From Heptranchias perlo (lineage: Eukaryota), in assembly GCF_035084215.1 (NCBI RefSeq), contig NC_090347.1, forward strand, positions 16,244,001-16,308,000: a stretch of DNA of 64,000 nucleotides. The letters run 5' to 3'. The notes under the pieces are model-generated. The model had not been told where the DNA came from. It searched no databases and saw only the letters and a list, made by a program, of their open reading frames with translations. A program made the position numbers and the translations under genes. Within the stretch, counting starts at the first letter, position 1. Every line of letters begins with the position of its first letter. Shown here one piece after another: positions 43,401 through 46,218 of this stretch.

Positions 43401-46218
43401 AAACAGAAAATCCTGGATAAATAAAGCAGATCCAAAACATCTGCAAACCCATTTGTCCTCACCATCTATCACCCCATCCTTAACCTCCCTTTCCATGCTA
43501 AGATCCTCAAACACATCATCATCTCACAGCTCCGTACCATCTCTCTCAAAATGTCCTGGTTGAATCCCTCCAGTCTGGCTTCTGCCCTTCTCACAGCACT
43601 GAGGTGGCTTTGGCTAAGGTCATGAATGATTTCCTCTATGACTGTAACCATGATATGTTATCTCACCTGTTCTCTTTGACCTCTCCTCCATTGTCCAGGT
43701 CCATGGCACTGCCCTTGCATGGTTCCGTTCCTCCATATCCAAACTCAGCCAGCATATCTCCAGCAATAGATTTCCTTCCTGCCCCCTCTGCACCGTCACC
43801 TCCCTTTCTCATCCACATGCTGCCCAGAAATGACATTATCCGTAGACACGGAGTCAGCTTCAACGTATATGCTGATGACATTCCAGCAGTACCTCTCCAC
43901 CATCTCTTTCAATCTCATAACCATCTCCATGCTGTCAGACTTCACATCAAATTATAAATGAGTAACAACTTCCTCCAATTGAATATTGGGAAGACCAAAG
44001 TCATCGCTTTTGGCCCTGGCCATAAGTTCTGCTCCCTTGTCATTGACTCCATCCACAGCTGAGCTTTAAACCTTACATCACCAAGACTGCTTATTTCCAA
44101 CTCTACAACATTGCCTGCCCCTGCCCCTCTGCTACTAAAAGTCTTATCCACATGTTTGTCATCTCTAGACTATTATTTCAATGCTTCCCATCCTTTACTC
44201 TTCATAAAGTCCAACTTGTCCAAAACTCAGTTGCCCATCACCTTTCCTACATTATGTTCCAGTCACCCATCATTCCCAACCTCATTAACCTATGTTGACT
44301 CCCTTTTCCCTCAACACATTAAAGTTAAAATTCTTGTCTTGAATTAGCCTCTTACAGCCTTATACTGCCTCCCACAACATTTGGTCCCCTGACTCCGACC
44401 TTTTACGCTTTGAGTCTCCATTCATCCCACCATAGGTGGCAAAGCTATCAACTGCCTCACCTCTACTATCTGGAACACCCTCCCTAAACCTTTATGCCTC
44501 TCTATTTCTTTCTCCGTCTTTAAAAATGTTCTCAAAACCCAGCATTTTGAGTAACCGTTCAGTCGCCGCTCCTAATCTCCCCCTCCTTGGCTCAGCACCA
44601 TTCCTCTATTTCCACTTGTGAAATGCTTTGGGATTTTTTTTAATGGCTATTTAAATGCATGTTACTGTTTTGTTAATGAATCAGCTATATATTTCCAGAA
44701 TTTTCTGTTATAAGCAGATAGTTTGGTATTTAGTAATGTTACGATAATGAAACTGAGATTTAAAAAATAAGGACAACTAGTTTCTACTGTAATACTACTT
44801 ACAACCTAGTTAAAAATTTACCACGACTTATTGATGTGACTGAGTGACACAGTAAATTAACCCACTGGCCTTTTAATTCCAGCCCAGATACAATGAATGT
44901 TTGTACAAAATAAATTTGGAAACTTTCAACCCACTTCTTACTGTATGTGAGTACACAATACAAAATGGCACTAAAGGGAAATCTTAGTGAGAGAGGCCTC
45001 AAGGACAACCTCTGTGGAAAATGGAAATTCCACACTAATGTGAAGAGAGGTGGAGTGCTCTTCTAAGCCAGGGCTAAGGCACATTATTGGTGCAGAGTAG
45101 AGGAAACTTACTTTGCAACTGGCATTACAATACCTACCTAGGAGTGCTTGAATCTGACACTGGGTACCTGAAATGAGAGACCCCAGTGCTAACATCCCAC
45201 GCTTTTATGGGCACAAAAATTATCAAAGAAAAAGATTATTTTATGAGCCACTAAACAAAGTTTACGATGAGCTACAGAGATATTAGCCTAGAAATTAGTT
45301 TGTAATATTAGCATACGAATGCCACCTGCTGCATTAGTGGATGTGCTAATCTATTTCAAATAAATGTGTTAAGACCTCAGTTGATATAGTGGACGAAGGA
45401 ATGTGATATAAACATGCTAAGTGCTCATCCACTAATATTGGGAAGTCATTTCTTGACTGTTTCAAGCTAAGAATTTTATCTTTTTTCAGATGGTTCACTG
45501 CGAAAGATCAGAAAACACTGTAAGAATTTTAGACAGCCTGTCAACGCTAAATAAAAAAATGACTTTGGAACAAAACACTGAAGAAAGCAGGAGGTGTGGA
45601 AATGGCCTTTGTTTTGTATCAACAGTTATCAGCTGCTGCTTCTTCCAGGACCACGAAACAAAAACCGACAATTATTTTGGTGCCTCAGTTTCATGTTTTG
45701 GAAAACATCAGAAAGAAATCATGATAGACATATTGTGCTGCCAAACATGGAATGCAGACATCAGCTTGGCAGTGTGTATGGCTTTAGAATGTCATGGACA
45801 GGCTATTAGGTTTCGCCCTAAGGTGCATTCTTTTGCTTACCCAATAAAGGATAATTCTAACACACAGAGAGGAGTGCGCACAATCAATGGTAAACATCAA
45901 CAGTATTCTCCCATACCACCCTGTGGCAGATGTCTAGTCCTATTCCCAGACATAAAAGATGATCTACAACAAAAAAACAATAACCCTCAATTTTGGCAAT
46001 ACGGGAACTGTGCTGAGGTAGAATCTTTAAGCAGGCTTCTAAATGCCCACAGGGACATTTCCGAGAGATTACCTGCTCCTCCAGGGAATCAGTTCACCTG
46101 GAAATCTCTTATCCTTAAAAGAAAACAAAGACTTGTACATAACCTAAAATTATTCAAGTTTAATTTGGGAAGGGATCTTAAATTTTACAGACCTTCTGAG
46201 CCACAGAATACAGCTTAA
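31401..46218 (+). CDS. Gene 2: triple CCCH zinc-finger (ZC3H11A/C12orf50-type) plus putative permuted deaminase, ~465 aa; join(31401..31409,34605..34670,36612..36731,37886..38009,40184..40208,41111..41267,41830..41997,45490..46218)
   Basis: Eight GT-AG exons splice into one open frame (phases 0,0,0,1,2,0,0). N-terminus: DCFFFQYKTCHEKEQCRFLH...VCPEWHRQKKCTNSSCSQKH...CDKELPNNYCKQQNCCMYH. C-terminus: PPCGRC-x25-CAEVESLSRLL. Confidence 0.85.
31603..33800. mobile_element. Nested MITE-like elements: a forward copy (31603-~31825 plus ~33266-33800) interrupted by a reverse copy (~31830-33265)
   Basis: Both are homologous to 12961-13692; 32530-33010 is the reverse complement of ~33290-33790. Confidence 0.7.
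31870..32518 (+). mobile_element. 5'-truncated Tx1/L1-clade LINE 3' end
   Basis: CPLAQRVW...VLYGLFPG...INSVKEALWSARNLLVFQ fits an ORF2 C-terminus; followed by a 3' UTR, AATAAA at 32491 and an A tail. Confidence 0.8.
34605..34670 (+). CDS. Gene 2 exon, first half of CCCH finger 1 (INDYQPEDIDCFFFQYKTCHEK)
   Basis: aatacag acceptor, GTGAGT donor, homologous to 61459-61515. Confidence 0.85.
34968..35700. mobile_element. MITE-like element with short terminal inverted repeats
   Basis: gggccagaatttcctg ... caggaaattctgggcc. Confidence 0.6.
36612..36731 (+). CDS. Gene 2 exon, end of finger 1 and finger 2 (EQCRFLHRESCKLSEDVCPEWHRQKKCTNSSCSQKHLNRE)
   Basis: ttgacag acceptor, GAG|GTACTG donor, 120 nt open frame. 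Confidence 0.85.
37176..37411. mobile_element. Penelope-type terminal-repeat insertion containing a perfect 180-bp palindrome, with a 13-bp TSD
   Basis: Palindrome 37232-37411 centred on CTCGAG; ctcctgtattatg duplicated at 37163-37175 and 37412-37424. Confidence 0.85.
37343..37381 (+). ncRNA. Minimal type I hammerhead ribozyme-like motif (mirror copy on the - strand at 37262-37300)
   Basis: TTCAC-CTGAGGA-A-GGAGG(TAG)CCTCC-GAA-AGCT-T-GTGAA: CUGANGA/GAAA core, helix I and helix II pairing, short palindromic helix III. Confidence 0.6.
37886..38009 (+). CDS. Gene 2 exon, finger 3 (TLKKYFLCDKELPNNYCKQQNCCMYHEKVSYLNGNYRSANE)
   Basis: gttcacag acceptor, AAG|GTACCG donor; resembles the third ZC3H11A finger and its tail as recalled. 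Confidence 0.82.
38100..38585 (+). mobile_element. L2-like 3' fragment
   Basis: Homologous to 28340-28975. Confidence 0.75.
38650..39310. mobile_element. MITE-like element
   Basis: ggggtagaatt ... aactctacccc inverted termini with an AT-rich centre. Confidence 0.5.
40184..40208 (+). CDS. Gene 2 25-nt micro-exon (VPMLAEKR)
   Basis: ttttttatcttcctag acceptor, AAG|GTGAGA donor; needed to convert phase 1 to phase 2. Confidence 0.75.
41111..41267 (+). CDS. Gene 2 exon (SDERDNVMNKNF...GKQYIKE)
   Basis: Within ORF 41046-41342; ctctttcattag acceptor, GAG|GT donor. Confidence 0.82.
41830..41997 (+). CDS. Gene 2 exon (ILHTILFLCHINQP...PTRPPYTILLEI)
   Basis: Within ORF 41809-42030; attttgcag acceptor, GTGAGT donor. 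Confidence 0.85.
42222..42556 (+). mobile_element. CR1 3' end fragment
   Basis: RGHSL...RRNFFTQRVVNLWNSLP-type coding remnant and ttctatgt tail. Confidence 0.85.
43460..44670 (+). mobile_element. Old L2-like LINE fragment
   Basis: IIRRHGVSFNVYADD RT motif and the shared 3' tail. Confidence 0.75.
45490..46218 (+). CDS. Gene 2 terminal exon, putative Zn-dependent deaminase-like domain (242 aa)
   Basis: ttttttcag acceptor directly before the ATG; PPCGRC at 45916-45933, CAE at 46009-46017; AATAAA near 46335 and 46397. Confidence 0.85.
   Translation: MVHCERSENTVRILDSLSTLNKKMTLEQNTEESRRCGNGLCFVSTVISCCFFQDHETKTDNYFGASVSCFGKHQKEIMIDILCCQTWNADISLAVCMALECHGQAIRFRPKVHSFAYPIKDNSNTQRGVRTINGKHQQYSPIPPCGRCLVLFPDIKDDLQQKNNNPQFWQYGNCAEVESLSRLLNAHRDISERLPAPPGNQFTWKSLILKRKQRLVHNLKLFKFNLGRDLKFYRPSEPQNTA

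Follow-up and report, generated by a model that had tools for sequence, protein, structure and literature searches.

The deaminases of the cytidine deaminase (CDA) superfamily share a core fold in which, according to the accessible parts of the superfamily survey (PMC3239186), the helix carrying [HC]xE precedes the helix carrying CxxC, and these zinc-ligand motifs lie at the starts of helices 2 and 3, respectively. The same parts of the survey treat the deamination chemistry as established for the superfamily, place the loop that leads from strand 2 to helix 2 along the substrate pocket of canonical enzymes, and give Gx[CH]xE in helix 2 as the signature of the YwqJ-like deaminases. In Bacillus subtilis, YwqJ acts as a cytidine deaminase on single-stranded DNA and not on RNA, as stated in the accessible portion of its description (10.64898/2026.09.29.755374). 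The stretch of DNA analysed here is a window of 64,000 nucleotides (64 kb) from the shark Heptranchias perlo (contig NC_090347.1, positions 16,244,001 to 16,308,000 of the forward strand). It contains a spliced gene whose product, for which NCBI holds a model annotated as an uncharacterised protein (P0002), carries both motifs in the reverse of the canonical order. Residue numbers are those of P0002, and coordinates are those of the window.

Order and conservation of the motifs

The PCxxC motif (PCGRC; 45919-45933, + strand) is part of the segment PIPPCGRC (45910-45933, + strand) and supplies C280 (45922-45924) and C283 (45931-45933), two residues predicted to bind zinc where the equivalent of helix 3 begins. 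Exactly 25 residues separate its second Cys from CAE (46009-46017), which is shared by the segments WQYGNCAE (45994-46017, + strand) and CAEVESLSRLL (46009-46041). The loop and helix typified by W-x-Y-G-N-C-A-E-x-E-S (45994-46047, + strand) would be the displaced equivalent of helix 2, with C309 (46009-46011) as the third ligand and E311 (46015-46017) as the predicted catalytic residue. Two candidate strands, STVISCCFF (45619-45645, + strand) and NYFGASVS (45670-45693, + strand), are located upstream, and all of these segments are read in the single frame 45490-46218 of the + strand. The original prediction, made from the DNA letters, had placed PCxxC 25 residues ahead of CAE, which is exact, with both in one frame on the + strand; its motifs and their placement were right, although the start it gave, 45916, falls within PIPPCGRC. 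Across all six frames of the 64 kb window, a loose form of the reversed motif has a single match, at this gene, and a loose canonical-order motif has none.

A profile search of 1.84 billion representatives returned 161 proteins at E <= 0.001, of which 150 were listed and 146 were newly added to the set, and a second search yielded 75 relatives, all with organism names, from 4209 candidates. The 210 proteins retrieved contain isoforms, close orthologues and one probable false hit, and 158 of them span both motifs. Within these 158, C280 is kept in 147, C283 in 153 and C309 in 154, as is E311, on whose conservation in homologues the original prediction had staked its case, in 155; all four residues are jointly intact in 147. 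A second Glu, E313 (46021-46023, + strand), is kept in 153 of the 158. By regular expression the reversed order was recovered from 148 of 211 proteins and the canonical order from 0 of 211, and the reversed motif is beyond chance. The third ligand is Cys in 154 of 158 relatives and His in 0 of 158, and it is placed after PCxxC rather than in the HxE-first order of AID/APOBEC. Moreover, as had been claimed from the single sequence, no HxE or CxE helix is apparent between the candidate strands and PCxxC: the region after strand 2 has no conserved His/Cys-x-Glu column pair, and any such triplet appears in just 26 of 137 proteins, in varied sequence.

The two motifs are 16-25 residues apart in most relatives. 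G307 is kept in 155 of 158, and with it the Gx[CH]xE signature of the YwqJ-like clade is present; a Lys or Arg lies within CxxC in 112 of 147. G199 is conserved in 170 of the 175 rows that have a residue at its position, and S201 likewise in 161 of 170. No His is conserved at 75% or more after strand 2, where the region is rearranged and a W-H pair is a majority consensus only. Nine of the 11 relatives that lack the full residue set are shark paralogues or their isoforms, P0034 being counted here because it groups with them; in a quick tree (69 of the 210 proteins, midpoint-rooted, used solely for grouping decayed copies) the ligand-losing shark copies form one clade plus one separate copy. 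P0010, P0013, P0019, P0020, P0034 and P0007 have lost zinc ligands and are still full-length in several species, which makes them candidate pseudo-enzymes. In P0051, P0081, P0127 and P0026, long repetitive or low-complexity inserts precede strand 1 or stand just before PCxxC, with the motifs intact.

All 75 named relatives, on which the taxonomy rests, belong to jawed vertebrates, namely sharks, Callorhinchus, sturgeons and paddlefish, teleosts, lungfish and two turtles, with no mammal or bird among them. Invariance of PCxxC...GNCAE across fish, invertebrate, fungal or bacterial homologues had been proposed as a check; the pattern holds within the family (the same 147 of 158) and no bacterial relative was found. 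In a pattern search of GTDB, 0 of 8 matches were confirmed as bacterial or archaeal relatives. A DNA-level pattern for the reversed order, in which a single Pro codon was fixed, matched at least 120 loci; among the matches listed, 18 had an uninterrupted frame, and the likeness of these never extended past the motif. The results from tblastn against plasmids and phages were chance matches only, metagenome and viral contig collections not being searched, and a match in phage KPP25 was rejected as antisense to an annotated gene. In the ESM Atlas the nearest clusters are unnamed chordate clusters with no common Pfam family, and the core had no named match.

Fold, chemistry and alternative readings

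The AlphaFold2 model of P0002 has a predicted local distance difference test (pLDDT) value of 88 and a predicted template modelling (pTM) score of 0.88; for the last exon alone the values are 85 and 0.84, and both motifs exceed a pLDDT of 90. The model runs through a helix (145-159), two strands (181-189 and 197-200), two helices (207-221 and 224-234), a strand (247-253) and a helix (281-286), followed by a short strand near 290, a helix (310-321) and a C-terminal helix. The first helix and the hairpin with STVISCCFF and NYFGASVS (45517-45693, + strand) would correspond to helix 1, strand 1 and strand 2 of a deaminase. The next segment (45703-45843, + strand) encodes two inserted helices, without HxE or CxE, at the usual place of helix 2, and then strand 3. 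In the models a helix begins directly after each of C280 and C309, and its first turns contain C283 and E311, respectively. The CxxC of C280 and C283 at helix 281-286, following strand 247-253, agrees with the superfamily, as does the location of C309-A-E311 at the start of helix 310-321, the position typical of [HC]xE; what the family departs from is the superfamily order of strand 2, helix 2 ([HC]xE), strand 3 and helix 3 (CxxC). This helix-start placement, together with the conservation in 147 of 158 relatives, supports the earlier proposal that the catalytic helix comes from the C-terminal side.

That proposal had left open a permuted or a rewired fold, and the rewired alternative is the one supported. 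A circular permutation was rejected, since the linker of 16-25 residues is too short for helix 1 and strands 1 and 2. Most likely, helix 2 was transposed to a place behind the CxxC helix in a rearrangement that is not circular. A partial tandem duplication followed by complementary losses could plausibly have produced the new order.

Sequence comparison of the window protein and its pieces gave no informative match in Pfam, PDB sequences, NCBIfam, PHROGs or PADLOC. In the alignment designated A3, composed of 98 members picked from 166 by coverage, 18 members match PF14431 (YwqJ-like deaminase) at E <= 1 (best E value 0.0011), 5 match CCCH fingers, and every other Pfam family is matched by two at most. 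For 15 of the 18 the best stretch places the GNCAE helix on PF14431 positions 61-113, and for the other 3 it places the upstream strand with CxxC on positions 92-132, CxxC falling at about 126-129; in the cases checked by counting from the ends of the stretches, position 67 takes the Gly and position 129 the second Cys. Because GNCAE aligns with positions 61-113 and CxxC with 92-132, the later segment of the protein matches the earlier part of the profile, so that the order appears reversed within one family. Positions 92-113 are matched by both halves, a hint from the alignments of a partial duplication. The tetrameric CDA model TIGR01354 is matched by 2 of the 98 members (best E value 0.0033; 17.7 bits against a curated cut-off of 113.65). 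The CAE that the original prediction set beside that of tetrameric CDA is present; YwqJ (PF14431), and not tetrameric CDA, is the nearest profile. AID/APOBEC, NAD and SNAD families are absent among the best 25 of the 80 Pfam families matched by the 98 members.

Covariation was estimated by mean-field coupling from 145 motif-intact sequences over 184 columns (effective number 126); this set was relied on in place of an earlier run in which decayed paralogues inflated the C280-C309 pair. The top pair, G206-W304 (z 6.6), links the end of strand 2 with the loop before the displaced helix, and further pairs are I214-Y306, S203-Y306, A251-N308 and C184-V312, from which the loop seems to pack against the end of strand 2. 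Of the top 92 pairs, 7 connect the CxxC helix with the CAE helix, versus 0.67 expected, and R242-R323 is consistent with the two short strands of the model. These signals lend modest support to the predicted packing of the displaced helix. The helix positions in the models, taken with the covariation, favour a putative convergence of C280, C283 and C309 at one zinc.

Structural comparison of the core model with Foldseek, bearing on the superfamily core of helix 1 and a sheet in 2134 order, gave 481 matches, in which blasticidin S deaminase (BSD) took ranks 1, 2, 4, 6 and 7 and a Hydra ADAR domain rank 3, with E values of 0.16-0.58. With VIA, 5 of 474 realigned chains reached Z 2, and the four entries among the matches listed were all BSD; the best superposed model residues 1-153 on chain residues 14-109 (80 aligned, root-mean-square deviation 3.6, Z 2.4, not significant). 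A library of viral structures gave nothing at E <= 0.001. Matches to the full-length model were set aside: they came mostly from its N-terminal helices, were TetR-like with Z values no higher than 6.8, and stayed within the chance range of the tool. Low fold scores would be expected if the aligners keep sequence order, and they prove nothing.

Considering the order of the motifs, their conservation, the intact gene, its domains and the confident model, the family is probably an active rewired zinc deaminase acting on polynucleotides or on another substrate. Several points weigh against this conclusion. No profile or fold match passes its threshold: the best PF14431 score, 19.6 bits, is below the gathering cut-off of 25.9, the best Foldseek E value of 0.16 is not significant, and in a wide VIA search, where 56 of 48161 chains have Z >= 2, the Z of 2.4 for CDA (3b8f) and BSD (3oj6) is equalled by unrelated helical chains. 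The protein of the window has no PF14431 match of its own, A3 is a selected sample of mostly motif-bearing members, and the 18 matching members are mutually related and not independent tests. The covariation is shallow, kinship among rows can inflate its signals, and the pairs L152-L286 and F198-S249 were not reconciled with canonical packing. In addition, a guess that the substrate is RNA is weakened because the sole characterised YwqJ is inactive on RNA.

We infer the zinc geometry, catalysis, substrate and role as follows. The rewired domain would consist of helix 1, strand 1, strand 2, the two new helices, strand 3, helix 3 (PCxxC), a short strand, a loop and helix 2 (GNCAE), with C280, C283 and C309 holding the zinc. 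E311 would deprotonate the zinc-bound water and protonate the base, the water attacking the amino-bearing carbon; the base would most likely be cytosine, giving a C-to-U change. In tetrameric CDA and BSD a basic residue in CxxC offsets the third thiolate, and the Lys or Arg seen in CxxC in 112 of 147 relatives could likewise compensate the charge at a three-Cys site. The N-terminal CCCH fingers might recruit single-stranded nucleic acid, RNA more likely than DNA. Such fingers bind single-stranded nucleic acids, as stated in the accessible parts of PMC3239186, which suggests RNA or single-stranded DNA as the substrate. A role in defence or editing is likely, because the family shows tandem expansion, decayed paralogues and a SUKH neighbour.

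The same rewired fold and zinc site might instead serve a free nucleoside, a nucleotide or a small metabolite, in a metabolic or nucleotide-depleting role. Three-Cys zinc sites are typical of nucleoside deaminases, the nearest structural neighbours are BSD and CDA (not significant), and the better of the two TIGR01354 matches has the E value of 0.0033 noted above. We regard a small substrate as unlikely, however, since the CCCH fingers of shark and lungfish members point to polynucleotides and YwqJ is matched by 18 of 98 members versus 2 of 98 for CDA. It is more improbable still that the fold is an unrelated or a non-enzymatic one, in which the zinc site made by the conserved Cys residues is structural and the likeness to deaminase motifs coincidental. 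That no solved deaminase is matched significantly, in sequence or in structure, would agree with such a site, as would two further conserved candidate ligands, C218 (155 of 176) and H82 (162 of 173), either of which is a possible fourth ligand. Yet E311 is conserved like the Cys residues, both motif blocks fall in consistent register on one deaminase profile, and the succession of helix, hairpin, strand and CxxC helix matches the deaminase core. Least probable is a domain-swapped oligomer, in which the CAE helix would complete a partner subunit's site instead of that of its own chain: covariation is blind to within- versus between-chain contacts and a domain-swapped superfamily member is cited by title in the accessible text of PMC5889660, but the single-chain models are confident (pTM 0.88 and 0.84; pLDDT > 90 at the motifs) and a linker of 16-25 residues can plausibly return within one chain.

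The gene and its neighbours

The frame 45490-46218 (+ strand), identical to residues 136-377 of P0002, is the last coding exon, and with its AG acceptor and open frame it encodes the whole catalytic domain and the stop codon. Seven exons from 34605 to 46218, identified by tblastn with orthologues and inspection of the borders, have AG/GT borders, are in phase and give 462 codons with no internal stop; a pseudogene is ruled out by this open frame and these borders. Three exons (34605-34670, 36612-36731 and 37886-38009, + strand), detected by tblastn with orthologues and having AG/GT borders and an open frame, encode tandem CCCH zinc fingers, and PF15663 was found in the orthologues P0003 (E value 7e-10) and P0005. 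P0002 begins inside the exon 37886-38009 and omits 85 CCCH-finger residues; these are encoded in frame, and orthologues have them. Three more exons (40184-40208, 41111-41267 and 41830-41997, + strand) encode a conserved N-terminal helical domain with the motifs ExLHxIFFxGxI and LPxRxP (model helices 23-140). This domain (41111-41997, + strand) includes H82, kept in 162 of 173 relatives, and had no convincing fold match. A candidate first coding exon (Met-Ala-Glu, then a GT donor; 31401-31409, + strand) is the sole pattern match in 19.9-34.6 kb and agrees with the N-terminus of the orthologues P0171 and P0176; if it is counted, the predicted protein has 465 amino acids. The segment 40912-40974 (+ strand) weakly resembles an exon used alternatively in two isoforms from Carcharodon (57% over 21 amino acids).

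The next paralogue in tandem, P0167, has an early coding exon at 61453-61515 (+ strand; tblastn, 95% identity over 21 amino acids, E value 1e-8), and both that gene and the cluster extend past the end of the window. Several broken copies of long interspersed nuclear elements, with endonuclease and reverse transcriptase pieces, lie between the two paralogues (50149-57441, + strand). P0007 is a third copy, in which the equivalents of both C280 and C309 are changed.

About 11.5 kb upstream and on the same strand is an intron-flanked exon with a US22/SUKH domain (19506-19885, + strand; PF02393, E value 1.5e-23), part of a candidate partner gene, the other exons of which were not found using a single homologue as query. 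It shares 50% identity with LOC125717868 of Brienomyrus, the only match among 330 candidates in a search limited to longer proteins. LOC125717868 is close in locus number to the family members LOC125717864 and LOC125717865, and from these numbers, which are the basis for adjacency in Brienomyrus, a US22 gene is apparently next to a family gene in bony fishes too. US22 and the family domain occur in one predicted protein in P0042 and P0194 (Acipenser sinensis, flagged unverified at source) and in P0075; these fusions may be merged gene models, and adjacency is implied even so. The sturgeon model P0194 combines US22, the deaminase-like domain and PRY-SPRY, possibly from merged neighbouring immune-type genes.

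The accessible parts of PMC3113570 assign US22 to group 5 of the SUKH superfamily, describe bacterial SUKH proteins as predicted immunity proteins, and state that vertebrate US22 copies are thought to derive from integrated herpesviruses. SUKH proteins are listed alongside YwqJ toxins in the part of PMC3482391 that was available, and the immunity genes of YwqJ in bacteria are given as SUKH3/Imm6 in that of PMC3239186. The adjoining shark gene is SUKH-5, which is a different SUKH group from the bacterial partner SUKH3. The US22 protein might hypothetically act as an inhibitor of the family protein. We speculate, rather doubtfully, that the two constitute a domesticated toxin-immunity pair retained by jawed vertebrates, in which a rewired deaminase derived from YwqJ would use its CCCH fingers to edit or mutate single-stranded RNA or DNA, restrained by US22/SUKH, with the inactive paralogues as decoys or regulators. 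If this were true, vertebrates would possess an editing system distinct from AID/APOBEC, ADAR and ADAT, and one that expanded in fishes.

Comparison with known deaminases

Literature searches, with most subscription journals and the supplement of PMC3239186 outside their coverage, gave no description of the family or of a reversed-motif deaminase. In the accessible text of PMC3239186 the sole mention of permutation concerns AICAR transformylase. The accessible main text of PMC5889660 has nothing on permutation, YwqJ, CCCH or US22, and the available portions of PMC3482391, PMC11065284, 10.1101/2024.12.17.628919 and 10.1101/693333 have nothing on the family or on reversed motifs. The family is real and conserved, and apparently undescribed. 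A natural swap would show that a deaminase active site can be rebuilt non-sequentially, and the swapped order would explain why Pfam and sequence-ordered fold searches miss it. The result is a candidate family of vertebrate deaminases whose range runs from chimaera to turtles. E311 is its predicted catalytic residue, some of its paralogues are naturally inactive, and a candidate inhibitor is encoded next to it. If activity were confirmed, it would represent an unrecognised kind of vertebrate nucleic-acid deaminase, a new base-editing scaffold and a lead in the innate immunity of fishes and reptiles.

The family fails the tests of motif order and score for every named clade. AID/APOBEC, NAD and SNAD are, like the proposed family, vertebrate zinc deaminases with lineage-specific expansions, and differ in having HxE first and the helix-4 division, according to the accessible text of PMC5889660. 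The LmjF36.5940-like deaminases of kinetoplastids, derived from CDA, also fuse N-terminal CCCH fingers to a CDA-type domain and are proposed to act in mRNA editing or DNA mutation, in the accessible account of PMC3239186. They have CDA-like motifs and belong to microbial eukaryotes, however, and no sequence link to the family was seen in the present analysis; the CCCH fusion is probably a parallel architecture. The tetrameric CDA and BSD enzymes (TIGR01354; 1wn5, 2z3h and 3b8f) share CAE and PCxxC, i.e., a three-Cys type of site, and are the top, non-significant structural neighbours. They are nucleoside enzymes of about 130 residues in which CAE stands before PCxxC, whereas the family is reversed, longer and multi-domain. 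The YwqJ-like deaminases (PF14431), known from bacterial polymorphic toxins and basidiomycetes, differ in several respects: the family has reversed motifs, two helices inserted after strand 2, an N-terminal helical domain with CCCH fingers and a spliced vertebrate gene in which no secretion domain was found, and all of its scores are below the PF14431 cut-off. At the same time, the two share Gx[CH]xE (GNCAE in the family) and a CxxC that follows strand 3; each half weakly matches the profile, and both are associated with a gene of the SUKH superfamily, SUKH3 in bacteria and US22/SUKH-5 here. Judged on sequence, YwqJ is most likely the closest clade within the CDA superfamily.

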